A stretch of 64,000 nt of DNA from Yuukianura sp. NJ FZ-2021 (lineage: Eukaryota), in NCBI GenBank assembly GCA_046563655.1, contig CM102283.1, positions 186,001-250,000 of the forward strand, given 5' to 3'. Position numbers and translations under genes: made by a program. Numbering within the stretch: the stretch's first letter is position 1; each line of letters starts with the position of its first letter. The notes beneath the pieces were generated by a model. That model searched no databases, was not told where the DNA came from, and saw only the letters and a program-made list of their open reading frames with translations. Below, in pieces: positions 17,479-64,000 of this stretch.

Positions 17479-19095
17479 CTTTGAAAAGGTTCTTTTCATA
17501 CGAACCGAAAAGGTTCCTTTCACTTTCTCCCCCTGCTGCTCCACTCTGTTTGAATTTTTTAGAAAAGTCTGAGATTTAGAGGTTCCATGTCATAACCGCC
17601 GAACCAAAAACCGCCGCTCCAAAAACCGCCGCTCAATAATCGCCGAAAAAATAACCGCCGCCAGGTAAAAATCGCCCTTATGCAAAAACAGCCGCCACGA
17701 AAAACCGCCGCTAGGAACACCTCACACTTTGTATTGCTCAATGTGGCAACATAGGTAGCCTTAGAAAATAGAACCTACAGACGTGATCAGTATTGTGGGT
17801 GTTACCAAACCTAACACCGCGCCTTCGGCAATAATCGCCGAAAAAATTACCGCCGCCAACCAAAAACCGCCGCTGTTCAGAAACCGCCGCCTTCCAGAAA
17901 GGGTTCAATACCAATTTTTTCAAAAGACCAGTTGGTGCAATGCCGATTAGTTTGAGACAAATTTGTTTGATTTTTAGGCGCGGTGTTAGGTTTGGTAACA
18001 CCCACAATACTCATCACGTCTGTAGGTTCTATTTTCTAAGGTGTGAGGGAGCATCACCCACACCACCCAACTTAGCAGATCCAGCGCCAGACGAGGAAGA
18101 CGGAGCGGAGGAGCAGCTTCACTCCTGGAGCAGACGGCGAGGAGAGAGGAGGACACAGGACACAGGATCATCATTTGTTTCACATTGGCGACCTGTGACA
18201 TTACGGAACCTCCAACTTCGGTCTGAAGTCCTTACTAAATCATCGAAACTACGCATCAGAAGGTCAGAGGTCAATCCCTACACCGATCTACGCAGATCTA
18301 CGCTACACTGAAGATCCAATTGTACATCTCAGCATCTTACATCGCTCATAAGGAAGGTATGTGAAATGTAGCATAAGTCAAGGGACGATGTGCATAACAA
18401 TGTCCCTCCAGTGTGTCAAAGGTCAAATTAGAGGTCACCTAAGCTAAAGACAGGAATCAGAGTTAGTGTAGACAGATAGCTATTGCATCAGAGCGTAGGA
18501 AGGACGTTGAAAGTCATTTGAAGGTTATCATATAAGTCATGTATAACGTAATATGAGTGTGTAGTGAAAAGATACGACAAATAACGTACCACAGCCGAGT
18601 CAATTAACAAAATTAGCATATTGAGAGGCAAACGAGTCAGAAATTCAAGGTTATCCTATAACTTACAGAGTTTCAGTCACAGTACGAGTCAGTTTCAAAG
18701 TTACAAAGTCAAGTCAAACGTAATACAAGGTTATTCACACTGAACTAGCAGAGTCACGGAATATAAGGTCAAATCAAGGTTACTTCGTGTTTGTAAGCAA
18801 ATCTACAGTTTCAGTTGAGTTATTAAGATACAGTTCAAGTTAAACCAAGGCTATTCGAAGTTATTCATGCAATCTAAAAACTTATGAGAGTTGTAAGACA
18901 AAATTAAAGTAAAACCAAGGTTACTCATGCAAAGTCAAGTTATTAAGTCACAGTTGTACATAAAGTAAAGAAGTCAAGGTAATACATGCAGAGTTGAATC
19001 TAAAGGTCAATTGAGTTTGTCAGATCGACCTTCAGAGTTCAAACTCACATTTTCTTACTAACGTCAAGGTTATAATTTTTGAAAAAAAAGTCAAA

Positions 19096-20610
19096 ATGAG
19101 TGATCACGAACAAGACACAGTTGATGATACTGAAAATGAAGAACCGAACGTACCACCGCATAGACCGCCTAGATCACATGTTAGCACTAGACAAGAAGGT
19201 CCAAATAACAGAGACAGAGTTCGAGAACGAGGTCAACGTACTGAAAATTCTAATGTAACACAAAATACTATGGCTCAAGCCAATCTAGGTACAAGTCGTA
19301 CTGCTCTAGCAGGCAGAGGAAGTACATACCCAGAACAAACAGGACCGCAAAACATACCGAAACGTGTTATTCGACAATTAGGTCTCGAACAAGAGGGTTT
19401 AGACACATGGTCAGATTTGAAAAAGTGGTTAGACAAAATTCCTAAAAAGAAAAGTGTCAGAGGCGACGTGAGTTCAGTCGACGCCTTAGATGAAGAAACA
19501 GATTCAGATGATTATGATGAAGAGAAAAGTAGCGATGAAGAAAGTGAAGTAGAGACAAGAAAGAAAAATCGAATGCCAAAGGTCAACTACGTTATTACGG
19601 GTATTAACCCGAATATACCGATACCAGTCTACGACTACAGAAAGCGAACAGCTGTTTCTTATTTACATGATGTAGAGTCGTACTTTCAGAGTCAAAATTA
19701 TACGAAAGACAAGTACTTGTACTTGATCCGAACAATTATGACAAAGGAGGACAAATCTTGGTTCGACAATGTCAGAGACGACATAAAAACTTGGTCAGAG
19801 TTTAAAAAAGCGTTTATAGCCAAATACGATTCAGTTGCAGAGAAAGAATTCAGAGCAAGGTTGTTATTAACCAGAAAACAGAAAGTTGCAGAGTCCGTAG
19901 AGTCATTCGTATGGGAAATGGTTACGTTAAGTCATCAGGTGAATCCTAAAGAAGAGACACATGTCATTGTACGCAGATGCAGAGACGCTCTGTATCCTAC
20001 AATTCGGACATTGATTGGTTATAGTGCTAGTTGGACGCCGACGGATTTAATTAATGAAGCGAAAAGAGTCATCTACGATTTGAGGTCAGAGGCTAAACGA
20101 ACGAAAACGTATATCCCAATTCCTCAGGTTAATACTATTCCAGTTGAGCAGAGTGAACTTAATTCAGCTTCAAAAACAGTTTCTAACACTACAGAGTCAC
20201 AAAATCATAGATTTCCAGAGAACATACATTTCAAAGGTAACCGTAATCGAGGAAATTACCATGGAAGTCAAGAAAGAGTTCAAAATTTTCGAAATTCTCA
20301 AAATTTTCAAAACAATGAAGGTCAACCAAGTGAAACGCGGAGTTATATGACATACCAAGGTCAAAGTTCTAGAGGCAGAGGTAATTCCTATGTGATCAGA
20401 CAAGGGAATAATACCCCAGAGTACTTGGCAGGGGATCACAATTTTTATTCTCAAAACAATAGAAGTAAGGATTACGACGAACGAGACTTTCAAAGTCAGA
20501 ACAGACATTTTACTCAACAGAAGAAGGAGTTAACCTGTTTTGTATGCCACCAGGTTGGTCATTTTGTTCGCGATTGTCCAAATGTAATACGCAGTCGCCA
20601 TGACGTATAA
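19096..20610 (+). CDS. gag: Gypsy-type Gag (504 aa)
   Basis: Retrotransposon-gag helical core (KSWFD..TWSEFKKAFIAKY..RKQKVAESVESF) and CCHC knuckle CFVCHQVGHFVRDC. Confidence 0.88.
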   Translation: MSDHEQDTVDDTENEEPNVPPHRPPRSHVSTRQEGPNNRDRVRERGQRTENSNVTQNTMAQANLGTSRTALAGRGSTYPEQTGPQNIPKRVIRQLGLEQEGLDTWSDLKKWLDKIPKKKSVRGDVSSVDALDEETDSDDYDEEKSSDEESEVETRKKNRMPKVNYVITGINPNIPIPVYDYRKRTAVSYLHDVESYFQSQNYTKDKYLYLIRTIMTKEDKSWFDNVRDDIKTWSEFKKAFIAKYDSVAEKEFRARLLLTRKQKVAESVESFVWEMVTLSHQVNPKEETHVIVRRCRDALYPTIRTLIGYSASWTPTDLINEAKRVIYDLRSEAKRTKTYIPIPQVNTIPVEQSELNSASKTVSNTTESQNHRFPENIHFKGNRNRGNYHGSQERVQNFRNSQNFQNNEGQPSETRSYMTYQGQSSRGRGNSYVIRQGNNTPEYLAGDHNFYSQNNRSKDYDERDFQSQNRHFTQQKKELTCFVCHQVGHFVRDCPNVIRSRHDV

Positions 20611-22339
20611 TCCTAGAGAAGAGAATTGTGAAGGTCAGAGACAAGAATTTTCGAATATCACAACTCACCAAAATAGTCAGAGACCAAAGTCAAGAAGAGT
20701 TTTCTCCAAATACAATGCCAATTTTTTCAAGTAGTAATTGTAAGAGGAACGACGTGTTCGACGATGTTCCTCCCCAAAACAAAAACAGCCAAGAAAATCA
20801 GTATTTAAATTATTAAGGGACAAAGTCCCACCATGTATCAATTTACTCCATAATTACTGCAGAGATTTAGTGTTTAAAATTTGGTATTCAAGAATTTAAA
20901 AAATTAAAAAAGACAATGTGCGCAGATGTCACATTACATAGTTTAGATTAGTCAAAAAGATTTATACCGCGACAGTTCAGATTATGGGATTTCCGCCGTG
21001 TTATTCCTGAAATTAAAAGGAAAAAACGAAGTTGTACATTTAACAGTTTACAGAGCAACAGTAACAGCTCTTAAGACAGATCAAAATTTAGTAGATGATG
21101 AAATAGAAATAAGGGATGCTCCCAAGGTTAGGTCGACGTGCTCGACGATGACCTGACACGTTGTCAAATTTCAAATGTATAGTTAGTGTAGATCAAATCA
21201 GAGAAGAGTAAAAGAACGATTAAGAAATTATTGAATTCAGAAAGAAATTATTAAAACCAAAATGGTTGAAAACAAGAAATCGAAAGAAACGAGCAATTGT
21301 CCTCGAACTAAAAGCAGAATTATGCTGTTAAAATGACGCAGTAGTCAGAATTGTTTATTTTACAAAAGCAGAGTTGCTAAGAAAAGAGATCTCCAAAAAT
21401 AATTCCAGTGATACGCCAGAACTCCAGAAAGTTAACGTATCTGTTAAGGAAAATACAGGCCTTACCCGGGAGCAACAGTCTAGCCCCGCGGAATATGAGC
21501 ACATTGCGCTGCCATTAAATGAATCAGAAAAAGTACGTACAGAAAATGAGAAAGTCGACTTAGGAAAACAAATAGGTTATAAGATAGAATTAAAATTTTT
21601 TGTACTAGGTATTACAATGATATGGAGAGAATTGATTTTGAGTTCAATCTAAAGTGTCATAAACAAATATACAGCAAATTATGCCAAAAAACTTCTAAGG
21701 TTCATTAGCAAGCAAGGTTTAATAACTTTCAAATAGACAGAGATGTTTCCAATAAAACAATCGACAACAAAAGATAAATTGGTTGACGAACTAAGTATTT
21801 GGCCAATACGGAAGTCTAAAACAAATTATTGCGAATCAAGGGGCTTAGGTCTCTTTGAACTTTAGTGTCAAACTGTTGTTCAGCATCTCAGAGTCAAAAT
21901 TACAAAAATACTTACAGAAGTTCATTGTATGCGTTCGAAACCATATGAGCAAGTTGCAAAAAGTATAATGACCCAGATTAGTTTAACAGTGTTCAACAAA
22001 AGCAGTCAGTATTGAGTCGACGCAGTGCTGTATTGTAATAAATTACGAACACGGAACCGAAAGTTACACAAACACGTTACCAATAGCAAAATAACCGAAA
22101 AAACAAGCGTTCTCAGATCAAAACCCCAGTTAATTATACAGCGTTATCAGGTTTAAGAATATAGATTAAGTTAGTACCCCGGGTTAGATTAAGTTAGACT
22201 AAAGTAGCATAAGTCAGAGTTAGTGAGATAATGTAAAAATGTATAATAATCCAGTTTACTTTAATTAATTTATGAAATACATCAAATTTCAAAAGCAAAC
22301 AGTTTAGAGATAAAAAAAAATTGCCGTTTATCATAGAGA

Positions 22340-23345
22340 AATGCACAAAATAAGTGAACGTCAAAAGACTGCGGACCAGTATAAGTATCCTATGTTGTTA
22401 AAACCGACGAAGAGTAGTCAATTTCAAAGGGGACATTGTGTTTGGACAGAGTTCCCCATTTCAAAAAAAAAATGCCAAGTGGAATTCGAAAAACGTATTT
22501 TTCAAAAATTATGGTTCCCGGAACTAGAGTTAAACATTGGATCAAAACAGAGTTTCATGTTGATTTAATTAGAGCATATTTGTTGTCTAAAATTTTCATC
22601 GATAGCGAACAATGTCGGTCCATTACTTGAATATTTACCAAAACGTGTATCAAAATAAAAAACTGTAACAGCTTGCCAGAGGGCGACAATGACCTTTTGT
22701 TACTCCAGCAAGATTTTAATCTTCGTTTATCCGGCCATTGACTTACAAGAATTCTACTTTAGAGTGTAAAAACTGTGTTACAAAACTTAAAGCCACTTGG
22801 ATTGGCTAAAAAGTGTAAATAGTTACTCAATATTGAGGTATTTGAGTTAGTTCAGAAGGAGGAGGTCGATGTGTTCGACAATGACCTCAGCAAGTAGTTT
22901 TGAGATGGAAACATAAATTAAAAATTTCCAATCTGGACAGAGTATCGAGCGAAATAACTCGATAAACCATTATTTCAAATCTTAAAAAGCGAAATTATAG
23001 CAGAAATTGCAAAAAATCACCAATTACAAATGAAGACTTACGAAAAATTACAAAATATACTCACAAATACGAAATGGATATTTTGAGAGTTATTTCAGAC
23101 ACAAACAGCCTAATCCTAACCGTCTACAAAGTCCCTCTTACGACAAAAATATCAACTACGACGACATGGAGACTTTTCCGCAGCCGACGACTACGAAGAA
23201 ATATTGGTTCTGTTTCTCTACTGGACACAATCACAAAGCATGCAAGAATCCGACAGCCAGTTACAAACATATCGTTGCAAACCCCGAGTAGAAACGGAAG
23301 TACAACCGCAAACACAAGTTATGGACCAGACGCAAACGAGGAGGA
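22340..23345 (+). pseudogene. Decayed RRP6-like exonuclease/zinc-knuckle extra ORF, homolog of 53500-55178
   Basis: Frameshifted fragments KYPMLLK, VPGTRVKHWIKTEFHVD..LLSKIFIDSE, GDNDLLLLQQDF..YPAIDLQEFY, LLNIEV, INYDD..FCFSTGHNHKACKNPTA align in order with the minus-strand ORF near 54 kb. Confidence 0.8.
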
Positions 23346-25507
23346 CTCATGCAGAAACCAGGACGACTCATGCAGAGACGAGGACGACCCCTTATTCCAG
23401 TCGGAGGACCCCCAGGAGGAGGTCAAGGGGCTCTTTCGAAGGAGAGTGTGAGGGAGCATCACCCCCACCACCCAAATCAGCAGATCCAGCGCCAGATGAG
23501 GAAGACGGAGCGGAGGAGCAGCTTCACTCCTGGAGCGGACGGCGAGGAGAGAGGAGGACACAGGACACAGGATCATCATTTGTTTCACAAAAGCTACCTA
23601 TGTTGCCACATTGAGCAATACAAAGTGTGAGGTGTTCCTATCGGCGATTATCGTGGCGGCTGTTTTTACCTGGCGGCGGTTTTTGCCTGGCGGCGGTAAT
23701 TTTTTCGGCGATTGTTGAGCGGCGGTTATTGGTTTGGCGATTATGGGTTGCTACGGATTTAGAAACCCCCTTGAGCAGAGAAGTTGTTAATCAGCGGATG
23801 CTGGTAGTGGACAGGACAGTGGACTGTGATGGATGAGGGCACAACAAGCTTTATTTTCAATTCAATGTTTCACTCGGATTAAGGATTTCAAAAAATCGAA
23901 AAGGATTTTGAAAAGTGTTTTAGACAGGAATTAGAAGGGTGCTGTGCGTTTGGCTATTGCAGATAACCGGCACTCACTGTTTGCTTTTTCCCTTGTGTCC
24001 ATGTAAGCTCAAAATTTCATCAAAATGAAAACTCTAATTTTGGTTTAACATTTTTTAATTTTGAAATTTAATAAGAAAGGGAAAAAATTTCCACTACTTT
24101 GCTCGCTCAATGAGATACGATCCACTTGGATTTCAAACTTTCGAAGGACAAAAATCTCCAAATCTTCCATCGCAACGAATAGACTTTCAAAATTGCTTTA
24201 AAAAATAAGTGAAAATTCAGAGAAAATATTGAGCGGACTTGTCAAAATTGGAAAATTTTTGTACTTTTTTGAAAAATAGAACTTTTGTTTCAAAATTTCA
24301 TGAAAAGTGAAAGTCCATTGGCACTCGGGTTACTTAATTTGGAAAGTTGTAAACTCTCTGGTCATTTCCTTCTGTTTTCTTCTTCCTTATTATTATGCTC
24401 ACCAGTTTTTGGTAGAAGGAAAAGCCTTGTTTAATTTGTTTCCAGAAGTTAGAGTAAAAGTGGCCATTAAATTAAATGGAAAATACTCTCATTCAATTGC
24501 ACAAAAACAACAATTGGAACTTTCTCTTTCTAGTCGGGGTATCATGAATAAGGCGAGAGCGGAAATAGTTACTTCCTCCAAAGAGAGCAAATAGTTAATC
24601 CCTCCAAATGTTATTATTGCTCAGGATTTGGAGCAGGCTGAGGAAAACGACTGGTGGAAGAAGCTTAAGGAATCAAATGGAGACTCGTTTGCAGAAAAAC
24701 CGAATCATATTTCTTTTTTCAACTAATTACACACGTTTTTTTGATCTTGGAGAAACTTGTTCAACTTTCTTTTGAAACTCCTTAACTTTTTCGGTTTTTT
24801 AAAAAAAGTAGGCGCAGAACAGAATGGAAATGACTTTTAATGTGCACATTCCCACTTGGTCTGTGATGTTTCCTTGGAGAGGGGCTGATTTATGGGCCAG
24901 AAGAACCACGGTGGTTTCCTTTCACTTTCTTAAAATTCCCGCTTAGGTTAGAATCAAGGAAAAGGCGGGTGGAGGGAGTAACCAAACCAAACCAGAGAAA
25001 GTTTAATTAAATCTGCGTAGATGCAAAGTTATGCTGGAGAAAGTCAGAGATTCCCATGTTACCCCGAAAATAGATCTGATTTCAGTCGTGCCAAAAATAC
25101 AAATTATAGTGTGTCTCTTTTTAGAAGGCACTTTTCAAATCTGAAAATAATTCCGTTCACCTTTGCTAACACCTTAGTTAACATAGAAATTCTCAATTTT
25201 GTGAAATTTTGTGTATAAACTATATGGAGAAAATGTGTTTTTTTTTTGAAAAACCGATTTTTTTATAAACGTCGCAATGGAAGAGAGAAAACGACCAAAC
25301 CAAAAAATGCCTTCTAAAAAGCGACAAACTATGGACACAACCTCGATCTAAATATTGTTTTATCTCATAACTTGTGTGTTTCCAAAATTTTGAAGTAGTT
25401 GTATTTTTCGTATGTTGATTATTGATAAGTTGATTGGATGTGACGGTTCTCTTGGACCGAAATAATATATTGAGTGGTTGTATCAGAACACAGTGAAATC
25501 TTCTGAA

Positions 25508-28067: not shown

Positions 28068-28550
28068 ATTAGGTCAAAGTTCAGGAATTCCTTTTTTACG
28101 ATTTATTGTTTCGCATTACGTCACTAAGAGTTGGGGCAACGTGAGAATTGAGGATCAGAAATGGCTCACCCACTTTGCCTGACCGTTTTAGAAAAACCGC
28201 GAATGATTCTCAAATTTTAACTTTAACGCAGTGATTCGCGAGTTAGCATGAGTTGTGCAAAATTTCAATCGTAATTAATCCACCCGTTCGGGGTTTTCAT
28301 GATTACGTAGTGTGTAAATTTTCAATTCTCAGTTGTTACCATGTCTACAAAACGTTCTTGGGCGTTATTTTTATTGACCTCCTGTCTCTCCTTAATTTTG
28401 AATCGGCGTAAATCACCACGACATCGGCAAGTGTTTGTATGTTTGTATGAAAGATACAGCTATTCACTGCAAATGATTTGAGTGAAAACGAACAACTATG
28501 CCGACGTCTGCAGTAAAACAGAAACAAATTTTGCAGTTGTTAACGGCAAC

Positions 28551-46661: not shown

Positions 46662-46694
46662 AGCAATATTTAATCAGTCAGAAAGCAGTCAGAC

Positions 46695-47351
46695 ATGGAA
46701 TTCGACTATCGTCTTCGACGTCCATTTGTGATGACGTGTGCAGGACCTACTCAGGCTGGAAAATCAACGCTAATTGAGGAACTGATAAGAAGAAAAGATG
46801 AACTAATATTCCCAAGGATTGAGAAAGTTATATTCTGTTACAATGAGGATGAACCTGCTTTTGCAGACGGTTTAAAAAAGCAGCTCGGAGACTCACGCAT
46901 ACATTTCCAAAAAGGAATTGTACTAGATGTTGAGGAAGGAAACAAGACTCCCACTTTAGTGGTTCTGGATGACTTTATGGAAGAAGCATCCACATCCAAG
47001 GACGTTTGCAGCATGGTAACACGAGGTTCCAGCCACCGCAATTTCAGTGTTATTTTGACGCTGCAAAACTTCTTTTACAAAAACTGTCGTACTTTGACTC
47101 TAAACAGCAAGTACATTGCACTATTTCGAAATCCCAGAGACACAAGCATCATCAATTATCTTAGCCGTCAAATGAATGGAGGCAAGGATCATCCAATATT
47201 AGCAGCGGCATATGAAGATGCTACCAAAAACAAGCCAAATAGCTATCTATTTTTGGACATGTCCCAACAACAAAATGATGAACACAGAATACGCTCTGAA
47301 ATATTTCCAGATTCAACTTGTATTGTTTATTTACATCGGAAAAATTATTGA
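46695..47351 (+). CDS. A32/FtsK-like DNA packaging ATPase
   Basis: Walker A GPTQAGKS, Walker B LVVLDD, RGSSHRN, TLQN, FRNPRD. Confidence 0.93.
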   Translation: MEFDYRLRRPFVMTCAGPTQAGKSTLIEELIRRKDELIFPRIEKVIFCYNEDEPAFADGLKKQLGDSRIHFQKGIVLDVEEGNKTPTLVVLDDFMEEASTSKDVCSMVTRGSSHRNFSVILTLQNFFYKNCRTLTLNSKYIALFRNPRDTSIINYLSRQMNGGKDHPILAAAYEDATKNKPNSYLFLDMSQQQNDEHRIRSEIFPDSTCIVYLHRKNY

Positions 47352-47710
47352 ACGTGTTTCTTAAGTTCTAACATTGCTTGTAATAAACAATTAAACAATT
47401 CCAATTTCATGCTGACTCCAACGATTCCTTCGACCGGATTCCTAATGTTAATGTGGGTGGCGGCTGGGGACGCTATACCAACCTCGTCTCCAAGATATAC
47501 CATCCAGCCATCGTCCAAATGTACTTGGGGGGCTGGGTATGGCTTTGAAGCAGAGGTTTTAATTTCAACTAGAGTAGGGATGATTACGGTTCCCTTGATG
47601 GCAGATTTGACGTTCCGGTTCTTTAATCGCTTCAGTCTTGGCGGATTTGGTGCTTTGACGTGCTGAACTTCGTATTCAAAGGTTGGTGATGGAGAACGAG
47701 ACTTTTCCAT
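47345..47710 (-). CDS. Polinton hypothetical protein (121 aa)
   Basis: ATG ORF convergent on and overlapping the ATPase stop; no motif recognised. Confidence 0.5.
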   Translation of the reverse strand: MEKSRSPSPTFEYEVQHVKAPNPPRLKRLKNRNVKSAIKGTVIIPTLVEIKTSASKPYPAPQVHLDDGWMVYLGDEVGIASPAATHINIRNPVEGIVGVSMKLELFNCLLQAMLELKKHVQ

Positions 47711-47942
47711 TTTATTAACACCACAATTCAGAGAACACGACTTGCAAATGTTGATTGTTGTAGAGGATTTTTTTTGTGAAAAGAAATTAGAAAAATCTTG
47801 TAATCGCAGAGCAAGTACAGCTCATGACCAACACAAGTGACGAACTAACGAAAAATTTCAATTTCTGACTATTGAAATACCTTATTTTCACCATCAATGT
47901 TAGTCATGACGTCAGTCAAGCTTTGTCACGTGAGGAGTCACA

Positions 47943-48197
47943 ATGTCTGAGAAGATTAAGTCCAACAAACGTTTTTTAAAATACATTTCCAGTTGTACAC
48001 CGGCTCAGCGAGAAGCGTTATTACGTCATGCCACCCCAGACGAGATAAAGAGTCTTTGTGAGTGCGTCATGAATGCGTACCGCAAAACGTTTCCCTAACA
48101 CCATCTGTCGTTGCTAAACTCAAACCGTTCCGTGGCACAATAACGAAAATTGCAAGGTATCCAAAGCAATCAATTCGCAAACAAAGATTGCTTTTAA
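47943..48197 (+). pseudogene. Small basic conserved Polinton protein, frameshifted and cut by a TTAA insertion
   Basis: MSEKIKSNKRFLKYISSCTPAQREALLRHATPDEIKSLCECVMN / KLKPFR..KIA..KQRLL; the CE..N motif is typical of a Maverick small ORF. Confidence 0.6.
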
Positions 48198-49498
48198 CCT
48201 TTTCGCGACGGGGTCATTAGAACCGAGTGCGTTTGTTGGACGGGGGACCCATTTTTGGGTTCTCCCTACTCGGACATCTCAGACGGGTAACCAAATCGTA
48301 GACTGATTCCACCAGACGGGCCTCTTTTTCTAAGTAACAAATCTCATTACAGTCTCTGCCCATCAATCGAATCTCTCATTTCAATTAGTATACTTATTAA
48401 ATAATATTATTATGTATTATGTAATATTAAATAATATTATACGTTATATTATACTCTATTATATATGTTATATAATATTACATAATATACTACATATTAC
48501 ATATATAGTATGTAATAGAAAAATACAGTTATATAATAAGCATATAATATAATAACATTTTATTATTATTATATTATATAATAACATATAATATAGTGTT
48601 ATGATATTATATGCTCATATATTATAACATATATGATATACAGTGAGTGCCACGAAAACCTGCACACCTCCATAGTAATTATTTTGTTTATTTTTCAAAA
48701 TCTGGGGGGAAAACTTGCACAAAACAACCTAACAAAAAATCTGTGCCTAAATACAAATTTGAAAACTAACTAGATTTCATGCTCGAAGTGCTTCCCTTCA
48801 GCTACGATGCAGTATTCTAAGCGATCATAAAATGCTCGCCGAGCATCTCGGAGTGTATCAGGAGTGATGGCGGCGAAAGCATCTCGGATTCTTTGCTCCA
48901 AGTGCTGAATTGTAGGGCTACGTACCAAAAAGACTTGGTGTTTTACAATGCCCCAAATGCAAAAATCCAGAGGTGAAAGGTCAGGAGACCTTGCAGGCCA
49001 AGGAATTGGCCCATCCCTTCCTATCCATCTTCCAGGAAATGCATCGTCCAGATATGATCGTACATCTTTCAGCCAATGCGCAGGAGCTCCATCCTGCTGA
49101 AAGTAAATTTCTTCGTCGCCTGCAATTTGCTCCAGTGCTGGTCCAATTTCATTTTGAAGCATATTCAAGTATCCTATTGAAAGTAATGAGTCAGTTGAGG
49201 GAAAGTGGTGTGGTGCCAGAAGATCTAGAGCACTATTAGGAACCAGAGACACCGACAACATCGCCAGAATATGACACCCCGGAGGTGCCAGGGGAGACTC
49301 CATGGCATGAACACGTGCAAGAACGACGTGGAAAAGGTGTCCGGAGACGTTTATCGCAAACATGGGAGGAAATTGAGAATGCTGGAGCCTACAGTTAGGG
49401 AGGGGAAGGCCAGGCCCTCCCCCCGGGCTACTTTGGAGAATTCAGCGGGCCATGTTTAGATTAACCCACGGACAATAGAATTCCGATACAAGGGTTAA
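48194..49498. mobile_element. Composite TTAA-bounded (piggyBac-like) insertion inside the Polinton
   Basis: TTAACCTTTT... at the left, ...AAGGGTTAA at the right; interrupts the viral gene block; contains an AT-rich tract and a Tc1/mariner fragment. Confidence 0.45.
48641..49175 (-). pseudogene. Tc1/mariner-type transposase 3' half with one TIR
   Basis: YFQQDGAPAH, RWIGR, WPARSPDLSPLDF, GKHFEH; TA|CAGTGAGTGCC terminus at 48641. Confidence 0.85.
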
Positions 49499-49628
49499 AT
49501 TTCCAAGCATTCCTACGTGCAATTGAGGGAATTCGGCGAAACCACTGTGAAAAATACCCACGCGCCATGTTTGCTATTTAATTGGTTGTTTTGTGTTTAA
49601 TCGAACTAGTTACTTGCTAGACTTTACA

Positions 49629-50390
49629 ATGTCGAAATCATTTTATGTAACACTTCAGTCAAACGCTTCGGCAAACTTTTTTAACAATAAAATTTGTGAT
49701 TTCAAAAATCGACTTGGTACGGCAATTTCATTACCTCCAGGGCAATGGGAGTTTGCGCTAACGGATATCAGCTATACTGCGGGAATATCTTACATTAGTA
49801 AAGGTGAGTTGTTGTTTGTGAAATATCCCAACTCAAATTCTGTGCGAACGAGTGAAATTACAGCCAAACAGACTGCGGCTTCACTAAATGAAGTTGAACA
49901 AGTTCTTTCCTCAGCGTTGCCAAACTCAACTTGGCAAATTACAAGAACTGGAGTCAGCTACTCGCTTACACTTGAGACACCACAAGAAAAAGTTGAAACG
50001 ACAGAAAAGATTAAGGATTTGCTGGGATTACGTACTACCGATTTGACGTGTCCAAAAAACACGTTTAAAGAGTTAAAAACAAAGTGTACTGGACGTAACG
50101 TTTTTCCAATATTTCTATTATCTGGAAATACGAAATTGTTTGTGTATTGCAATCTCGCACGTCCACAGTTTATTGGCGATACAATGGCGCCATGCTTACG
50201 GGTTCTGACATATAGCGGCGAAAACCGAGAGCAAAGACATCACGAATTTATTAATCCTCAATATGTGGATTTGGCTGTTTCTGAATTTGACATCATCCAC
50301 ATGTATATATTAAACGAGATGGGCGAAGTTGCGCCATTACAATTTGGGAACGTGACTGCTACACTACGATTTCGAGAAAAGAAAATATGA
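49629..50390 (+). CDS. Polinton minor capsid protein (penton)
   Basis: FYVTLQSNAS..NKICDFKNRL, WEFAL.DISY, LFVYCNL..Q.IGD...LR, NPQYV, TLRFR. Confidence 0.88.
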   Translation: MSKSFYVTLQSNASANFFNNKICDFKNRLGTAISLPPGQWEFALTDISYTAGISYISKGELLFVKYPNSNSVRTSEITAKQTAASLNEVEQVLSSALPNSTWQITRTGVSYSLTLETPQEKVETTEKIKDLLGLRTTDLTCPKNTFKELKTKCTGRNVFPIFLLSGNTKLFVYCNLARPQFIGDTMAPCLRVLTYSGENREQRHHEFINPQYVDLAVSEFDIIHMYILNEMGEVAPLQFGNVTATLRFREKKI

Positions 50391-50764
50391 GGGCAAACTA
50401 TCAATACGGAGGATTTCAAGATGGCCGCCTTTTCTTCTCAGGCGTTCGCCGTCAGCGAGGGGCTGGCCTGGCAGGCATATTTGGAGCTGTGGCAAGATAC
50501 CTTTTGCCATTCTTGAAGAAATTTGTATTACCACATGCGGCAACAGCGGTGACGTCAGTTGCTACGGATATGGTAGCTAAAAAGCAACCGCTTACGTCAT
50601 CAATCAAGGAACATGGAAAGCAAGCATTAAAGAGGGTTGGATCGGCTATTCTCAATCAGTCCGGTTCTGGAAAGCGAACGAAACGCAGCGCCATCCAAGT
50701 GCCATTGCTCAAACCAAAACGAAAAATTCCAGTCAAATTCTCGCCTAAAAAAGGACGTTACTGA
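50387..50764 (+). CDS. Basic core/precursor protein with Q-x-G-x-G protease-site-like motifs
   Basis: QYGG, RQRGAGLAGIF, NQSGSG, Lys/Arg-rich tail; lies between penton and hexon. Confidence 0.75.
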   Translation: MRANYQYGGFQDGRLFFSGVRRQRGAGLAGIFGAVARYLLPFLKKFVLPHAATAVTSVATDMVAKKQPLTSSIKEHGKQALKRVGSAILNQSGSGKRTKRSAIQVPLLKPKRKIPVKFSPKKGRY

Positions 50765-50774
50765 TTTTAAAAAG

Positions 50775-52076
50775 ATGGCTGTTCCCTACAAATTTATCCG
50801 CTGTGAAACGCAATTGTTTGATGAGCTACAATATGGCGTGAGCTTAGCATCCACTCATTGCTCAGAGCACTATCCCATTACGTCAATTTCTGATCAAAAC
50901 TCACCGATTGAGTTCTTTCTGCAAAAGCAACGACTCCCAATAGATTGATTTGGCAGAAACTAAATTGTACAGCAAAGCCAAGGTTGTAAAGGCGGATGGA
51001 ACAAATTTTGCTGCAACCGATTCGATTACTACAGTCAACAACACCCTACACTCCATGTTCAATCAAGTGTCGATTTGGTTGAATGAACTTTTGATAACCC
51101 CAGCGTCAAATCAATATGCCTATCGAGCATATTTGGATACTCTTTTGAGTTACAACAAGGAATTCAAGAAATCGCATACTCAGTGTGCTTTGTATTTTCG
51201 CGAAACTGACCCTGCAAACACTGATTCTAAAAAGGAGGATGGTTACAAGAGCAGATTCGAACTAACAAATACTTCCAAAGTATTTGAAATGATTGGTCGT
51301 CCATTTTGTGACATTTTTCTGCAAAACAAATATTTAATTCCGGGGTTGACATGCGCATTAGTTTTGCTCGGTCAAGCCCAGAGTTTTGTCTCTTTGCTCC
51401 AGCTGATACGAAAGCTAAAGTTGTTGTAACAGAAGCTCGACTCTTGGTGAAAAGACACACTTTGCTACCAGATTTGTTGACTGCCACGATTCAAAACATG
51501 GATAAGGGTCGTCATGCAACATATCCACTGAAGCGCGTCGAAATTAAATCGTACTCATTGTCACAAGGAAGTGTCGGCGACGTTAACGATTCGCTGCTGA
51601 CTGGCATGTTACCAGACAGAATCCTTGTCGGAATGGTGAGCTCCAAGGCATTCAACGGAGACGTCACAAAGAACCCTCTAGAATTTCAAGCTTTCAACTT
51701 ATCAAGAGTCGAGGTTGCAGTCAACGGTGACATGACGTCATACCTCCCCTTACAGGTTGACATTAGTGGCGGCACCTACATTCAACTTTACAATAACCTT
51801 TTTGAGGGGTTGGGAATTTCAAACGATGACGTCGGCTTGGATATAACCCGGGAGTCTTTTAAAAAACACCCACTAATGCTTTACAACCTCCGCCACATTC
51901 GTGACGGATTTGCATTGCCCACTTACGGTAACGTGAAAATTGACCTCAAGTTCAAGGAAGCCTTGACGGAAGCTGTAACTGTTCTTGTGTACGCGGAATA
52001 TCAGTCTGTCCTCCACATTGACAAGAGCAAAAACGTCTACTTTAAGGATTTTTCAAACCACAACGCTATTCAATGA
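50775..52076 (+). pseudogene. Polinton major capsid protein (hexon-like), frameshifted at ~50925 and ~51345
   Basis: PIEF, NNTLHSMFNQV, YAYRAYL, QNKYLIPG, LP.RILVGMV..AFNG..KNP.F, G..KIDLKF..AL..VLVYAEY. Confidence 0.9.
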
Positions 52077-52402: not shown

Positions 52403-53499
52403 AGTCACAGAAATTCGCAACTTAAGGTTTATAGGTCATAAATTGACACCTTAAATTACATTGTTTGTGCCACGAGGTACTAAACTGCAAAAAAACATAA
52501 TAAATCCGGAAGACTAAACTAAATTGGTGACAAAAAGGAAAACATTCTAAAAACAAACAAAATGTGAAGGCCGTTAGGCATCAATTTACTTTATTCTTTT
52601 TCTAAACCTGTAAGGCAGCGATTATAAAACAATGTAATAAAAATTGATTGGGAAATGACTTCTAAAACTTTAGTTAAGTGCTAATGTGTGCAAGGAGGGA
52701 TAGAAGAAGGCTAATCGTGATTCCTGTTCATCCGTGAATTTAACTAACATGAGACAAACGAGTTAACGCGTGGTGGAGAGCCGTTGTACACAAAAAGAAA
52801 ATAACAAAATGTTTATTAACTTCTAGGCTCCGTCGATTTTTAATTAAGATGTGAGTGTGATTCTTCCAATTCAATGCCACTAGGTATTGCCAAATCTCCT
52901 TTTGGCAACTCGAATTCAACTTTACCTATAAAATGTTTCGCAGCATAAACTTTTGTTCAAGATGATATTTGAGATACTGTGGTACTTTTCAAGGTTCTCA
53001 GCTCAAAAGTGACACAGATTCTACATTCCTATCGACATATTGATACACTAAATTGTTATGCGTAACTTAGCCCGAGGCGTAAAATGCTAAAGCTGTTTTT
53101 GTAAAATGTAAGGGTCAACAAGTTCAACGGGCCACTTCGAATAAGTGCCCTACCCTGATGACCGCTTTTTGACGGGGCGTGGTCACTTGGCGCTGAAAGG
53201 CCAATTGTATTTGTAGGTATTGAAAGTTTGACCCTTAAGGGGTCCGTAGATTGTAGAGTTGACCCCTGGTCAACTCCAGAAATGATCTGGAAAAGAGGAC
53301 TGATCGCGAGTAGGACTGGAAACAGACTGATCTTTATTCTCTGAATAAAGATCTGAATCAAAAAATAAGAAATAAAACTAAAGCTAAACTGTGCTGTGCG
53401 GTGTGGTCTGTCCTCCTCGTGGCTCTCTCCTCTCCTCCTCCTCCTCCTTGGACGGTGGCGAATACTGCGCCGTCACATTCACCACGACGAGAGCCCCCT

Positions 53500-55178
53500 C
53501 TACTGGCGAAGCGTCGTCTTGCGTCTGTGTCGGTTACGATGGTGGGAAAGCCGTCTACGTCGATTCTCTTGCTGTCGTCTTTGGAGGGTGGAATTGATGA
53601 ATCCCTTCCTGGCAGTCGGGTTCGGACAAGTACTGTGCTCGTGTGAAGTGTCGTGACAAAGGTAGCATCTTCTGGTGCTGATTGGTGCATCGGGAAGTGG
53701 AATTTCTGGAAATATGTCCGGCTCATCATCATAGTTCACATGGATTTCAATGTCTGGTTCTGTAGCTTGCATGTCAACATCAGGAGCTTGAATCGGCGAA
53801 ATGATTTTTGGTTCTGGTACAATATGGTGTAAATTGGGAGTTGGTTCATCAGCTTCAGATTCCGTTTCTGGTTCTGATTCAGGAGTTCGTTTCTGGTTCA
53901 CGACCACGATTTTACTTCTGATTTGGACATTCAAGTCAGACCAACTATCTTCGCTATCGTCGTCGGTGCTGACGTATGATGGTGCTCTGGTTAGTGGTGC
54001 TGGAATGTTGGCGATTACATGGTAAACTTGAGCGATGGCGTCACAGATTTGATTTTGAATTTCAAGTGAACATTTGTAAATCTTAACTACGTCTTTTGGA
54101 CATGAAGGAGCCACTATGGCTAAAGTTCTCATTTGATCGAATGTCATAATCCAATGTACTTGTTTGTCTAGAATTTTTGCCTGATTAAGTGCCCATTGGT
54201 ACAATTTGCTAAAAATACACTTCTGAATTTGATTGAGTGCTTGTGCTTGCTTGCCTAAAACAATTTCTACCGTTGTTTTGTCACACGCACGGTACATTTT
54301 TAAAGATTTCTCCATAGATACTAGGAAAATTGGTAATTTTGCTTCTAACTTATGTACAAAGTCTAGTTGAAGGTCGCTGCCACTCGCTGCGTCCTTCCTT
54401 TTCTTAACACATTGATTCCAGATTAATATCAAACTATAACTATCATACCAAGCATATCTGAACAAATCCTGTGGTAAACGACTGAGCTTATCTCTCACTG
54501 TCCAATCTGCTGCTTGAGCATCCTTTGACACCTCTACATCAAGTAAATATTTACACATCGTGGAAAGTGAAGTAGCTTCAAATCTAGCGTCTACACCGAA
54601 AAATAACATATGATACAATTCTTGTAAGTCTATTATAGGGAAAATGAATATGTCAAAGTCACGCTGCGTCTCATGAGTTAATCATTGTCGCTGCCAACTA
54701 GAATTTTGCCAATATTCGTACAACAAAAGATTTTTGGGAGATTCTCCTTAAGCCAATTACAAATCGGGGGAACATCTATCACAAAATCATGATCCTCTAC
54801 TGAAATTTGAATAATAGTAATGAAATCTTTGTAACACTTAGTCTGATGAAACTCCACATCTACAAAAAGTAACTGTTTCTGAAGTAAAAACTCTAACATC
54901 TGATCTGCATGATAACTAGTCTTAATCCAGTGATGAGTTCTAAAATCTGGTACTTCTAATTCTCTAAATAATGACAAATCTGGGTTCCAATTACGAATTT
55001 GATTCTCAAAGGGGTGTACTCTTGGAATTTTAGGCTCTATAGCAAAATTTACATTCTGTCTCATCTTTAAGAATTCGGGATACAAATCTTACGGTCTAGC
55101 TTCTACGGACTTCCATTTCAATTTAGCTTCTTTCTGTGCTAGTTTCCATTTCTGAGCCTGTCTCTGCTTGCTATTCAT
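53500..55178 (-). pseudogene. Retrotransposon-borne RRP6/EXOSC10-like DEDDy 3'-5' exoribonuclease + HRDC + CCHC knuckle (one stop at 55091, one frameshift at ~54670)
   Basis: ExoI FVDVEFH..IIQIS..DFVID; ExoII GSDND..QRDF..ID; ExoIII Q.ADW.VR..LP.....YAWYD; HRDC-like IFSKLYQW....AKILD; CYLCHDTSHEHSTC. Confidence 0.88.
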
Positions 55179-55399
55179 TTTGAGGGTACAGTCGCTGCCT
55201 GAATCGCTGCGTCTGTACTGTAAATAACCAAAAATACTAAAATTAGTCTAAATCAGAATCTTAACTAATTTCAACCTAGCCTAAGTTATTTTCAACTTAA
55301 CCTAGTAATTTCAATTTAACCTAAAATGATTTCCTTAACCTAAGGCGCCAACTAACTAAATTCTTAATCTAGCTTAACTAAGAGCTCTTCTAACCTAAC

Positions 55400-57030
55400 T
55401 TATGTCCTAAATCCTGCTAATTGCCTGTAGTTTACTGGTTTTCTGTCTCTGAGCTGTCGTTTTTCTGGTTCTTCTGGCATTTCTTCTGGAATTTTGATTC
55501 GAACTGTCTCGGTATCTCTTGGAAAATATGGTTTTAAGTCACTGACGTGTCTAACTCCTGCTAACTCTCTTTCTGGATAAGTACAAATTTGAAATGTAAC
55601 TGGAGTGACTTGTTTGACAATAACATAAGGTCCTATCCGCTTTGGAGCTAATTTTTGAGCTATACCTTCGTCTTTGTTAGATTGTACTCTGTTTCTAGTC
55701 AAAACAAACTGATTTTCATCAAACGAAACTTCTCTACGATGTTGATCATAGTATTTCTTGTATGTAGCTTGAGCTTTGTCAATATTCGTTCTGACCCAAC
55801 TAATTAGATTCTTTAAGTACTGATTTAATTCAATTGCATGAGACTCTGGTAACTCGAAATTTTCCTTTTCTGGTTCTGAAATTTGTCTGTCGAACGGCAA
55901 ACTAATCTCACGACCTAAGTTTAACATTGCTGGTGTTACTTTAGTACTTTCGTTACAGACTGTTCTTAACGCAAGTGCGAATTTTTGGATATGTAAATCC
56001 CAACTCGAATGTTGACCGTCTACAAATGCACAAATCATTGCTTTAATGTTTCTATTTATCCTTTATGCTAAATTTGGCTGGGGATGGTACACTGCGATGA
56101 ATCTATGGTCGATATTCCAAGCTTTACAACATTTTTTCATTAAATTAGACAAAAATTGAGATCCGTTGTCTGTGATTATCGTTTTTGGACTTCCGTACCT
56201 GCAGAATACGTGATCCTCTAAACAATCTACAATCTTTTTAGCCGTTGCTTCTCGTAACGGAAACATTTCTGTCCACTTTGACAATTGGTCGACTAGAACT
56301 AACAAATACTCATTTCGTCTGCCTCCTGCAGTAACCGGAAGTGGACCAATTAAATCTGCGTAAATGACTGAGAAAACCTCTTTCGCTGCTCTAATAATTC
56401 CCATAGTCCCTGCGGGTTTTAAGTTATCATATTTGACTTCCTGACAAACTTTGCATGTTTTAACGTAATTTGCTATATCTTTGTTCATGTCTGGCCAATA
56501 CACTCTGCTTTGAACTCTGAATTTTGTTTTTCTGACCCCTGGATGACCTGAATGAGGTTCATCATGTAACTCTTTTAGAACCAAATTTCTGAGACTTTTA
56601 GGCACAACAGGTAAGTACAACTTAACTCTATCCTTAACACTATTCTTATCTCTATTCTTAACACTAATCTTAACACTAACGCTAGCTTCGTCTTCGTCTG
56701 TACGTACTTTCTTTTCGGAACGAGGAGCATCTTCGCATCCCACATTGTTCCTTACGAACGGAGAGCTCTTCGGCATCCCACATTGTTCTTTTAGACGCTC
56801 TTGGTTCTTAGGGCTATCTACCCTTTCTGCTCTACCAGGCACTGCCGCTGGGAGTCTACCTAGGCCTTTCTCTTCGGTATTCTGTACAAAACAACTTTCG
56901 TTTGTAGAACCGATCTGTGGATCAACTCTGTCCACTTGTGGGGTCATGCTACCCACTTTGCGCGTCCGCAAACTTCTATTTTTCTTTGTGTGCACTATCC
57001 TAAACAGGATTCCATCTTTTATAACATAAT
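55400..57030 (-). pseudogene. pol: Gypsy integrase (HHCC, DDE core, GPY/F), broken near 56060
   Basis: LHDEPHSGHPG..YWP..CKVC, ADLIGPLP, TDNGSQF, YHPQPN, KLAPKRIGPY. Confidence 0.92.
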
Positions 57031-58186
57031 TTTCTAAATTGCATGATTTTTTTAACCCTTTTTGTTACTTTATTATTCTAGTAACTTTATTAAAATAAAA
57101 ACTTACGATTTCATATTGTTCTAGAGCCCAGTTTTGAATTGGGCGGACATCAAACCCAGTTCCCATACTTCGGAAGAAACTGTTTTGTTTCTAATAAAAA
57201 ATTAAATAGTTATTCTGTTGCAAGAAAATGAACGAGACCAACACCCAGGTAGTACATATGTACGTGGTACGTATGTGCTACTTGGGTGCAAAGCTTGCAG
57301 ATTTTTTTACAAAACCCTGCGCAAACTCTGACACCTTATTGCAACCATACTCATAATCTTCGACAGCCAACTTAAACCTAACCTAATAAAAACTTATTGT
57401 GTTACACTTACAGGTGTTCTTCCAAATTGTTTAGTTTGGATTCCTCCTCCATTCAGTACTGACTTCCGGCTCTTTGCTTTCTAAACAAAATAACAAACAA
57501 ATTTTGAGATGAAAGCGTAAAAAAAATAACAGCAATATCAAAACATAGTAACAACCAATGTTAGGTTAAGTCAGGTTACACTTACAGGAGTCCCACCAAC
57601 TTGTTTAGTATTGCATCCTCTTCCTTCCTGTACTGAGTTCTGGCCTTTGTTGTTCTAAGCAAAACGACAAACAAATATTAAAATGAAATCGTAACAAAAA
57701 ATAACACCAAATTAAAAAATACTAACAAAAACATCAAAAATAAGATCCTCAACCTTATGTTGTACATGTGAAATTGTGTAAACATTAAATAAAAATTTGA
57801 ACTGTAATAAAAATGTTATTGGTACCTTGTGGTTTTGTAGTTTGTTTTGTAGTTTCAATGCTTGCCATTTTTTCCCCATTTTTAAACTAAACGTATTAAA
57901 GCTTCTGCAAAATTTATTAACTTTCTTCTTAAAATTCTTTCTCAGCAACTGGGGAGGGTAGGGTATACGATTTAGTATTAGTTGGTTATTGTCGTCGAAT
58001 GGCTTATAGCATTTTTTGTCATCTTGTACTAACGAACGGATGACAATAAACCAAAAGTGTGCAAGCAACTTTTTTTGCAAGTTGAAGTTATATCCTTTGG
58101 TTCAGAGAACCGAAAAGGCGTCGTGTCAGTTCAACACAAAGACAATCAGACTTGGATGGGAAATTGACAGACTGCATTTTTTGCCA

Positions 58187-59120
58187 TCAAGTCATAAATA
58201 CCTGTGGCAACTTGAGATTTGCTGCAGGCAGTAGTGGCTTACAGCCCTCATCAGAGAAGCCATTGCTTCCGAGTTTCGGGATCCAATTTGGTTTGGACTC
58301 AGAAGACGATGAAAAATCCCATTTGTCCACCTCCAGCTTCAATTGTTTGAGGGAGATGAAACATTGGTTGATGGTGTCGATGACCTTCCGTAAGCCAGAA
58401 GTGGTGTCAGAGACATTTGGAATGGAGAAGAGCTGTTGGAGGTGGGAAGAAGCGTTTTCCCGCTTCTTTTTGTAGCGTTTCTCCACCAACGCCCACGCTT
58501 CTTTGAAATTGAGGTTGGTCAGTGGAAATGATTTGGCAATGGAGGCGGCATCTCCGGTCAAGGCATTTTTTAGGTACATTAATTTTGATGCACCTGAGAG
58601 TTTTTTGTTTTCGATGACTGCGGCCTTGAAGAGGTCGGAAAACTGCTGCCACTCGGAGTAGCTTCCGGAAAATGTCGGTGGTTTGGTGCGTTCCAATTGG
58701 AAATCGGAACCATCGGGGAGCTCTTCTGTTTCGGTGGAAGATTTGGATGCTTGTTCTGCTCGGAGCTTGGTCCTTGCAGCGATGTTGCACTGTTCGCGTG
58801 CGCTGAGGATTTGAAGTTGACACTTTTCCAGAAGTGTATCGCAGAGGTCAAGGGTCACTTGGTGGGACTGGAGAACTAGGTGAGAATCCTTTACCACTGA
58901 GCATGTCAGGATGACTTTTCCTCCAGAACTCCAGTTGCTTTTCCATTTTGGAAAGTTTGCCCTCTTTGACCGTGACCTCTAGTGAGTTGAACTTGCTCCA
59001 TCTTTGAGGGTCAACGGTCTCGGAGAACTTTTGAGCACTAATTCTGAAGTGTTCAAGTCCAAAAACTGCGTGCTCGTAGGGGATGTCGAGGTCAACCATC
59101 ATTTCCTCTTGTTGGCTCAT
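58187..59120 (-). pseudogene. gag: Bel/Pao gag fragment (DUF1759-like)
   Basis: PTFSGSYSEWQQFSDLF..KLMYLKNALTGDA..NFKEAWALVEKRY. Confidence 0.8.
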
Positions 59121-59633: not shown

Positions 59634-60895
59634 AGTGAACAACTTGAGTACTTAAATGAAAACTGTTCACTAATTATTTAGTGAACTACTATGTTCACAA
59701 TTTATCTACTTACATCACACTATGTTCACTAGTTATTTAGTGAACTAAAATGTGTGAACTTGACTACGAAAATCACAAATGTTCACTGATTAGTTAGTGT
59801 ACCACCAATGTGTTCACGAGTTTTATACTTACGACTCACTTTGTTCACACGTTATTTAGTAAACTAAATATGTGTGGACAACTTGATTATGAAATTACAA
59901 AATGTTCACTAATTATTTAGTGAACTACTAATGTGTCCACAAGTTATCTACTTAGCTTACACTATGTTCACTAGTTATTTAGTGAACTAAATAATTGTGA
60001 ACACCTTGACTGCTAAAATCACAAAATGTTCACTAATTATTTAGTGAACCACCAATATGTTCACAAATTATCTACTTACCTTGCACTATGTTCACTAGTT
60101 ATTTAGTGAACTGAAATATGTGTGAACAACTCGACTACTGAAATCAGAAAATGTCCACTAATTATTTAGTGAACTACTATGTTCACAATTTATCTACTTA
60201 CATCACACTATGTTCACTAGTTATTTAGTGAACTAAAATGTGTGAACTTGACTACGAAAATCACAAATGTTCACTGATTAGTTAGTGTACCACCAATGTG
60301 TTCACGAGTTTTATACTTACGACTCACTTTGTTCACACGTTATTTAGTAAACTAAATATGTGTGGACAACTTGATTATGAAATTACAAAATGTTCACTAA
60401 TTATTTAGTGAACTACTAATGTGTCCACAAGTTATCTACTTACCTTACACTATGTTCACTAGTTATTTAGTGAACTAAATAATTGTGAACACCTTGACTG
60501 CTAAAATCACAAAATGTTCACTAATTATTTAGTGAACCACCAATATGTTCACAAATTATCTACTTACCTTGCACTATGTTCACTAGTTATTTAGTGAACT
60601 GAAATATGTGTGAACAACTCGTCTACTGAAATCAGAAAATGTCCACTAATTATTTAGTGAACTACTAATGTGTCCACAAGTGATTTCGTGAACTGAAATA
60701 TGTGAACAACTTGACTAATGAAATCACAAATGTTCATTTAAAATTTAGTGAATCACCAATGTGTTCACAAGTTATCTACTTACATCACACAATGTTCACG
60801 AGTTATTTAGTGAACTAAAAATATTTACAAATTATTTAACAAACTAAATATGTGTGAACAACTTCGTTATCGAAATCACAAAATGTCCACAAATT
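59634..60895. repeat. Satellite with ~50-55-bp palindromic subunits and a 488-bp higher-order repeat
   Basis: GTTCACTA(A/G)TTATTTAGTGAAC recurs throughout; the block starting 59691 repeats almost exactly at 60179. Confidence 0.9.
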
Positions 60896-63715: not shown

Positions 63716-64000
63716 TTTTAGTTTTTCGAGGTTTGTGGTTGGTTTCGGTTTTTTCCCATTCTCTATTGAATCCCTCTCCTGCTGTGTCTTAACAGGGTAA
63801 ATATGGAAATGGATGGAGATTCAGCGCCGCTGGAAGTCTGGCTCAGGTGGACGTCCACAACTCAAAACCTTAAGAAAAGATGAAGGAAATGGAAATGAGA
63901 AATAAGAAAACATTTTTTGAAAAACATATTTGAAAGGGGCCTTTTGTTTCATTTTTGTTTGATTTAGGACGCCTTGACTAAATACAAATTAAAATTTCAA

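Follow-up and report, generated by a model that had tools for sequence, protein, structure and literature searches.

An RRP6/EXOSC10-like exonuclease gene in the env position of a Ty3/Gypsy-type retrotransposon lineage

Positions 53500-55178 of a 64,000-nucleotide stretch of eukaryotic DNA from Yuukianura sp. NJ FZ-2021 (contig CM102283.1; the whole stretch is called the window below), itself a mosaic of transposon fragments, hold a broken minus-strand gene for a nuclease of the RRP6/EXOSC10 type between an integrase frame and a long terminal repeat (LTR), and the question raised by this locus is whether the nuclease gene belongs to the retrotransposon in which it lies or came to rest beside it by chance. 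RRP6/EXOSC10 belongs to the nuclear RNA exosome, in which it serves as a distributive 3'-5' exoribonuclease, and its PMC2NT domain binds Rrp47/C1D. The stretch is the third open reading frame (ORF3), between the integrase and the 3' LTR, of a 5'-truncated and dead Ty3/Gypsy-type LTR retrotransposon, element 1, and the exonuclease gene is real cargo of a whole element lineage and not a chance neighbour. The explanation considered highly probable is that ORF3 is the RRP6-like third gene of a Ty3/Gypsy lineage and that its intact copies would make a stand-alone, exosome-independent 3'-5' exoribonuclease.

ORF3 comprises 560 codons, from the ATG at 55178 to the stop codon at 53500-53502, and its reading in the window copy is broken once by an in-frame stop and once by a frameshift (Table 1), which leaves two stop-to-stop frames, 54678..55088 (136 amino acids, aa) and 53500..54681 (393 aa). 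The encoded parts follow in the order DEDDy exonuclease, HRDC, acidic linker, CCHC knuckle and Arg-rich tail. The Pfam family DNA_pol_A_exo1 is split over both pieces (profile positions 2-87 at E 2.2e-7 and 92-167 at E 1.7e-5, both above the curated cut-off), and the catalytic pentad reads D, E, D, Y, D. The PDB matches obtained with phmmer are all RRP6/EXOSC10, namely 13 of 13 for the first piece (best E 9.7e-7) and 6 of 6 for the second (best E 8.5e-7); these alignments begin in the RRP6-specific stretch that precedes the exonuclease domain (pre-EXO) and continue through the HRDC domain. Nothing past HRDC resembles EXOSC10 in the PDB alignments, no dedicated model of the exosome-binding region having been used, and Pfam did not find PMC2NT in the window pieces. 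Moreover, ORF3 has its own conserved start and N-terminus, and the in-frame stop of the window copy falls in a conserved N-terminal motif. The original prediction, made by reading the letters, had described just such an interrupted 560-codon frame with every DEDDy position retained, an HRDC-like bundle that does align to the HRDC region of EXOSC10, a knuckle and an Arg-rich tail, set between a Gypsy integrase ending at 55400 and an LTR starting at 53477, and had expected DNA_pol_A_exo1 with RRP6 as the nearest relative; all of these features hold. A separate observation concerns the 9-mer GACGCAGCG, which occurs three times in the window (55205-55213, 54662-54670 and 54385-54393), always in the sense orientation within the exonuclease gene region, against a chance expectation of 0.16 and with none of 100 shuffles reaching three; by reading of the sequence, no copy is more than about 30 nt away from a GGCAGCGAC motif, and one directly adjoins the frameshift.

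The ends of element 1 are set by its neighbours and by other copies, for which Logan contigs of four runs (X1-X4, from two studies and two organisms) were compared with positions 53000-57300. The frame that terminates at 55400 encodes an integrase of Ty3/Gypsy type (Integrase_H2C2 at E 5e-24, rve at 1.4e-14 and SH3_Tf2-1 at 1.1e-7 in Pfam), broken by a single in-frame stop at 56063-56065. It lacks its 5' side, the element being cut near 57062: beyond 57061 the contigs of other copies are unlike the window, and the next feature is a fragment of a BEL/Pao-type gag, so that element 1 is read as 5'-truncated. The frames just upstream of 57064 matched no Pfam family, and RT and RNase H are missing from the window copy. 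At the opposite end, the LTR start at 53477 is homologous to that of a second element in the window (element 2), where the LTR start is verified, and it is also backed by the position at which other copies cease to match the window. The 3' LTR is given a length of 371 bp because similarity between the window and the contigs of other copies ends below 53107, where unlike flanks follow. Two further observations touch this region. The BEL/Pao-type gag fragment (DUF1759, E 1e-27) lies at 58187-58978 on the minus strand, just upstream of the truncated integrase, and the integrase frame itself holds, at 56400-56950 on the minus strand, about 100 extra low-complexity charged residues between the usual pre-finger motif and the H2C2 finger.

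The status of the exonuclease gene as cargo follows from three bodies of evidence, namely element 2, two related metagenome loci (L001 and L002) and contigs that span the junction between integrase and ORF3. Element 2 is bounded by LTRs that are identical at 138 of 143 positions and have TG...CA ends; a site resembling a primer-binding site (TGG...) stands at 18186, 1 nt past the 5' LTR, and a purine tract at 23438-23446 precedes the 3' LTR. Its gag at 19015-20610 matches Retrotrans_gag and zf-CCHC in Pfam, and a clean target-site duplication was not found for it. When the two ORF3 pieces are used as queries, tblastn matches element 2 at 22493-22609 and 23133-23339, and tblastx between the two elements gives four colinear matches in the order integrase, N-terminal part of the exonuclease, ExoII/III region and knuckle-tail. 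There is no blastn match between elements 1 and 2, and element 2 is therefore a diverged member of the family and not a recent duplicate.

A metagenome scan with a distant relative, P0024, whose protein is 23-25% identical to that of the window and whose integrase is 33-35% identical, returned three loci. L002 carries an open pol (RVT_1, RT_RNaseH, Integrase_H2C2, rve and SH3_Tf2-1), followed by a 458-aa low-complexity frame and then by an intact ORF with exonuclease (EXO) and HRDC domains; the pol order of reverse transcriptase (RT), RNase H and integrase is thus seen in this related locus. L001 presents, in order, a gag, an integrase and an intact exonuclease ORF, and no LTR pair was found in it. 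The Logan contigs cover all of 53000-57300 at 85-100% likeness, and those that differ by 2-4% run across the interval from the pol stop to the ORF3 start (records 5, 12 and 20). At the frameshift site the X1-X3 contigs differ from the window in length and X4 has no such difference; at the integrase stop all the covering X1-X4 contigs carry another letter. Both lesions are therefore not common to most of the family. In each of the three genomic contexts that were read, the exonuclease gene stands after a Gypsy pol. The proposal that a Gypsy-type element has, in place of env, an RRP6/EXOSC10-like gene with DEDDy and HRDC domains joined to a zinc knuckle is sustained by loci other than the one that inspired it. 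As observations on the two metagenome loci themselves, the 458-aa open frame of L002 (2548-3924), between pol and the exonuclease ORF, is strongly charged (Lys/Glu-rich), matches no Pfam family and overlaps the end of pol in another frame, so that a fourth ORF and a frame-shifted tail of pol are both conceivable; in L001 (3374-8899) pol lies in many short frames and the downstream 509-aa exonuclease ORF is intact, which may reflect chance or a nuclease gene kept after the death of the element.

The nuclease belongs to a protein family of its own. An exhaustive HMMER search with the 393-aa piece retrieved 62 proteins at E ≤1e-3, two of which match the knuckle only, and a word-indexed protein search with the same piece gave no match. 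The best true matches are P0002, a 144-aa fragment with 48% identity, and P0003, a protein of 545 aa with 29% identity over residues 6-385, including the knuckle. Many matches are proteins of 456-597 aa with their own Met and a basic N-terminus, and the start of P0022 is nearly the same as that of the window ORF. Several are diverged paralogues in the springtail Orchesella dallaii, one of them under three accession numbers, and the rest come from metagenomes or Logan assemblies; these names make a springtail or another soil arthropod the probable source of the window. GTDB genome contigs hold no relative, as expected for a eukaryotic element, and scans of IMG/VR with P0044 and P0011 gave no match.

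In a tree of 57 rows (the 62 matches minus the two knuckle-only proteins and four fragments below 250 aa, plus the window with X at its breaks), a branch with a support of 100 in the Shimodaira-Hasegawa-like approximate likelihood-ratio test (SH-aLRT) sets 25 short proteins together with the window apart from the 31 rows of canonical EXOSC10, which include all 17 proteins of at least 600 aa. Pfam finds EXO in 22 of 22 short relatives, HRDC in 16 of 22 and PMC2NT in none of the 22; PMC2NT is reported for seven of 10 canonical rows, six with a matched stretch at E up to 0.001 and the seventh without one. When 34 hand-picked rows are rooted on six bacterial RNase D sequences, the short clade (SH-aLRT 98) branches off as sister of the full set of 13 eukaryotic EXOSC10 sequences sampled (97), with 99 for the joint group against RNase D and with long branches, and the approximately unbiased (AU) test does not reject the joining of the short clade to animal EXOSC10 (p 0.172). 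Against the family profile, EXOSC10 sequences reach 219-265 bits, compared with 151 bits at most for bacterial RNase D. The fold agrees: in the AlphaFold2 model of the closest intact relative, P0003 (mean predicted local distance difference test score, pLDDT, 76; linker 399-492 disordered), RRP6/EXOSC10 cores fill the 12 rows listed at ranks 1-13 of the structural matches (one rank omitted) and E. coli RNase D comes next. Template modelling (TM) scores by target are 0.45-0.72, and 0.61-0.72 for isolated catalytic cores; the model superposes on RRP6 EXO+HRDC cores over about 332 columns, and structures similar to P0022 in the ESM Atlas likewise belong to EXOSC10 clusters.

The element-borne genes form a clade of short (about 460-600 aa) RRP6/EXOSC10-like proteins that is abundant in Orchesella dallaii and is carried by a diverse element lineage, probably of springtails. 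In this clade a basic N-terminus precedes the pre-EXO stretch, EXO and HRDC; the linker that follows is acidic, the tail is basic, and some members also have a CCHC knuckle. By sequence comparison the origin is of RRP6 type. Of the earlier idea of an exosome nuclease captured from the host, the RRP6-type identity stands and the host capture is at most a candidate origin: the clade is sister to all sampled EXOSC10 and not nested among those of animals, and by the AU test a union with animal EXOSC10 is not rejected either. A recent capture from the present host is unlikely because of the roughly 25% identity to EXOSC10 and the long separate stem.

Several signs point to a function that has been retained. 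When the window is aligned with 29 relatives, all 30 rows have the ExoIII Y and D, all 27 rows that extend over the ExoI D and E have both residues, and the full D-E-D-Y-D pentad is found in 23 of the 26 relatives covering all five positions, at an overall identity of about 25%. Between L001 and L002 (synonymous divergence, dS, 0.29), the ratio of nonsynonymous to synonymous change (dN/dS) is 0.32 overall, 0.25 in the N-terminus plus EXO and 0.26 in HRDC, values that are not near 1. Moreover, the ATG is preceded by a pyrimidine tract with a terminal AG, at a distance of 40 nt in the window and of 7 nt in L001/L002; as a sequence motif, this acceptor-like tract would fit expression of ORF3 from a spliced subgenomic RNA.

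From these elements a mechanism can be proposed. Intact copies would make a 3'-5' exoribonuclease that finds its RNA unaided and would be independent of the exosome because PMC2NT is absent from the relatives and from the window alike. The protein is probably translated from a spliced subgenomic RNA, in the manner of the env of errantiviruses, which is made from such an RNA. The basic ends and, in one subclade, the nucleocapsid-like knuckle would bring the nuclease to RNA. The likeliest role, advanced tentatively, would be the trimming of RNA 3' ends within the element's own replication complex, with genomic RNA, primer transfer RNA (tRNA) or leftovers of RNase H as candidate substrates, and the main alternative role would be the destruction of host silencing small RNAs. 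An exosome decoy, which had been among the roles first suggested, fits poorly and is unlikely because PMC2NT, the Rrp47-binding domain, is missing and no recognisable region for binding the exosome core follows HRDC in the PDB alignments.

A number of points weigh against the proposal of an element-borne, active and exosome-independent nuclease. Concerning the completeness of the copy itself, neither a partner LTR nor a gag, RT or 5' LTR of element 1 is present in the window, and the HRDC match of the window (E 0.0094) falls under Pfam's cut-off. Context beyond the window is known for one other branch of the family, that of L001/L002, and the dN/dS values rest on this one pair of copies. A fusion of pol and exonuclease is found in none of the seven matches among longer proteins (one EXO+HRDC protein of 1051 aa, five WRN helicases and one other), which is weak evidence. 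The ExoII D is kept in 26 of 30 rows, two relatives having E and two Q. The splice site is a motif match by itself, no RNA run is listed as containing the 53500-55178 stretch, and nothing in the data separates the proposed roles from one another.

Against this background, the alternatives differ in how much of the evidence they can absorb. That a processed copy of host EXOSC10 or of a paralogue landed as a one-off pseudogene beside a Gypsy fragment would suit a broken copy without RT, gag and 5' LTR in a window made of transposon fragments, but it is scarcely credible given that the same gene order recurs in element 2 and L001/L002, that the integrase-ORF3 junction is common to other copies, and that the protein, at about 25% identity to EXOSC10, falls in a separate well-supported clade with its own conserved start and N-terminus. 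A host family of short RRP6-like springtail genes, occasionally picked up by elements or domesticated from them, would make the link to the element secondary, and the Orchesella dallaii models annotated as ordinary proteins, as well as the intact exonuclease ORF of L001 next to a fragmented pol, can be read in this way; this account is nevertheless highly improbable, since the genes are multi-copy and strongly diverged within one species, with one sequence under several accession numbers, and follow a Gypsy pol in all three contexts that were read.

Two other alternatives accept the cargo and differ on what the protein does. It could be an inactive RNA-binding adaptor in which the exonuclease fold is kept only to hold RNA, as in EXD1, Egalitarian or Maelstrom, and the E or Q at the ExoII position in four of 29 relatives and the Egalitarian complexes at ranks 27-45 of the P0003 structural matches speak for it; the conservation of the full pentad at such low overall identity and the fact that the best structural matches are active RRP6 cores make it quite improbable. 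More serious, and still on the unlikely side, is a counter-silencing nuclease that would degrade or over-trim host small-RNA precursors, or unprotected small interfering RNAs (siRNAs) and PIWI-interacting RNAs (piRNAs) aimed at the element, in the manner of viral suppressors of RNA silencing. Small RNAs are substrates of certain 3'-5' exonucleases, ERI-1 and Nibbler among them, and the conserved catalytic residues, the purifying selection, the RNA-binding ends and the lack of the exosome-tethering domains of RRP6 all agree with this role, but the nucleocapsid-like knuckle fits action on the element's own RNA equally well. In its fullest form, the claim that a springtail Gypsy lineage has long kept, under purifying selection, an exosome-independent RRP6-type exoribonuclease made from a spliced RNA and suppressing small-RNA silencing is unlikely; if true, such a suppressor would be a retrotransposon weapon against the RNA-based defence of the host.

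The preferred explanation, an RRP6-like ORF3 carried by a Ty3/Gypsy lineage, can be placed among known systems. In comparison with RRP6/EXOSC10 itself, the element proteins are nearest to it by sequence, profile and fold and share the pre-EXO stretch, the DEDDy EXO and HRDC; they differ in lacking PMC2NT and a recognisable C-terminal exosome-binding region, in being about 460-600 aa and not 650-1000 aa long, in carrying a basic tail or a CCHC knuckle, and in forming a separate clade. As in errantivirus-type Ty3/Gypsy elements, ORF3 occupies the place of env after a closed spacer and an acceptor-like site precedes it, whereas the env of those elements is a membrane glycoprotein and the product here is a soluble nuclease.

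The closest precedent comes from bdelloid rotifers, whose Juno and Vesta LTR elements are described as carrying DEDDy-type exonuclease ORF3s (Rodriguez, Kenefick & Arkhipova 2017, PMC5408684), a finding repeated in a review (PMC6431247), and a DnaQ-like exonuclease is listed as a known accessory domain in an opinion paper (PMC6338049). According to the 2017 description, the bdelloid ORF3s were acquired at least twice and are common to Athena/Terminon elements too; they resemble RNase D, carry an altered motif (DEED) and are distinct from cellular Rrp6, RNase D, WRN and mut-7 (PMC5408684). As described there, the likeness to the elements reported here extends to an extra DEDDy ORF between pol and the 3' LTR, to catalytic residues that are mostly kept and, in some of them, to a Cys/His zinc motif (PMC5408684). 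Conversely, when the two are compared by description only, the bdelloid proteins are RNase D-like with DEED and those found here are RRP6-like (pre-EXO, EXO, HRDC) and mostly DEDD-y, and rotifer elements stand against probable springtail elements; HRDC did not turn up in the description of the bdelloid ORF3s, in a paper that was not searched specifically for that domain (PMC5408684). The initial view that no Gypsy lineage with such a cargo had been described is accordingly too strong as a general statement. A literature search outside of which lay subscription journals, Repbase and Dfam led only to the bdelloid paper and to reviews that cite it, and it brought up no RRP6/HRDC-type ORF in arthropod Gypsy elements, those of springtails included. 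LTR elements with a DEDDy ORF3 are thus already known, and what is new is a version in another animal group that is RRP6-derived, HRDC-bearing, knuckle-tailed, multi-copy and probably selected.

Accessory enzymes are rare in retrotransposons and point to steps of replication or of host conflict outside gag and pol. The present lineage offers a second case besides the bdelloids, clearly RRP6-derived and multi-copy, with signs of purifying selection, arthropod-type elements and naturally intact genes, and the role of a 3'-5' RNA exonuclease in a retroelement becomes testable in a second system. Moreover, the family represents a natural minimal RRP6, composed of EXO and HRDC without exosome tethers, and springtail and metagenome annotations such as "HRDC domain-containing protein" or "ribonuclease D" are explained as probable transposon genes.

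Table 1. Coordinates of the parts of element 1 and element 2 in the window.
Feature	Position	Strand	Details and basis
RRP6-like ORF3, pseudogene in the window copy	53500..55178	-	in-frame stop 55089-55091; frameshift ~54669-54681
DEDDy 3'-5' exonuclease domain	54412..54932	-	PF01612 in both pieces; ExoI, ExoII and ExoIII retained; domain split by the frameshift
HRDC-like helical domain	54073..54216	-	Pfam HRDC E 0.0094; aligns to the EXOSC10 HRDC region
CCHC zinc knuckle	53626..53667	-	C-x2-C-x4-H-x4-C; aligns with the knuckles of P0003, P0031 and P0047
Basic Arg-rich C-terminal tail	53503..53625	-	sequence
Spacer, pol stop to exonuclease ATG	55179..55399	-	221 nt, closed in all frames; acceptor-like tract 55218-55227
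pol integrase part, element 1	55400..57064	-	Integrase_H2C2, rve, SH3_Tf2-1 (Pfam); two adjacent frames
3' LTR, element 1	53107..53477	-	371 bp, TG...CA; start homologous to the element 2 LTR start
Element 2, diverged and internally decayed relative	18042..23589	+	143-bp LTRs at 18042-18184 and 23447-23589
Element 2 remnants colinear with element 1	integrase 22099-22230; exonuclease 22499-22591, 22719-22757; knuckle and tail 23184-23339	+	tblastn, tblastx, translations

The remainder of the window holds other mobile sequences. A Polinton/Maverick-like or virus-like block extends over 45708-52076, in which an rve integrase (45708-46673, minus strand) stands back to back with a frame resembling a packaging ATPase (46674-47351; weak matches to AAA_14 and Adeno_IVa2) and is followed by several long plus-strand frames that match no Pfam family, up to 52076; the block is interrupted by a minus-strand frame at 48770-49441 that reads like a mariner-type transposase and has no Pfam match. 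A split PIF/Harbinger-type DDE_Tnp_4 transposase lies near the window end (63100-63717, minus strand), and at 59660-60877 direct repeats at a 62-nt spacing are nested within a 488-nt higher-order repeat whose copies are 99% identical. Lastly, two pairs of direct repeats about 6 kb apart, at 9521-15669 (98% over 170 nt) and at 28548-35073 (94-99% over about 400 nt), resemble the paired LTRs of further elements, and the exonuclease finds no match in either.

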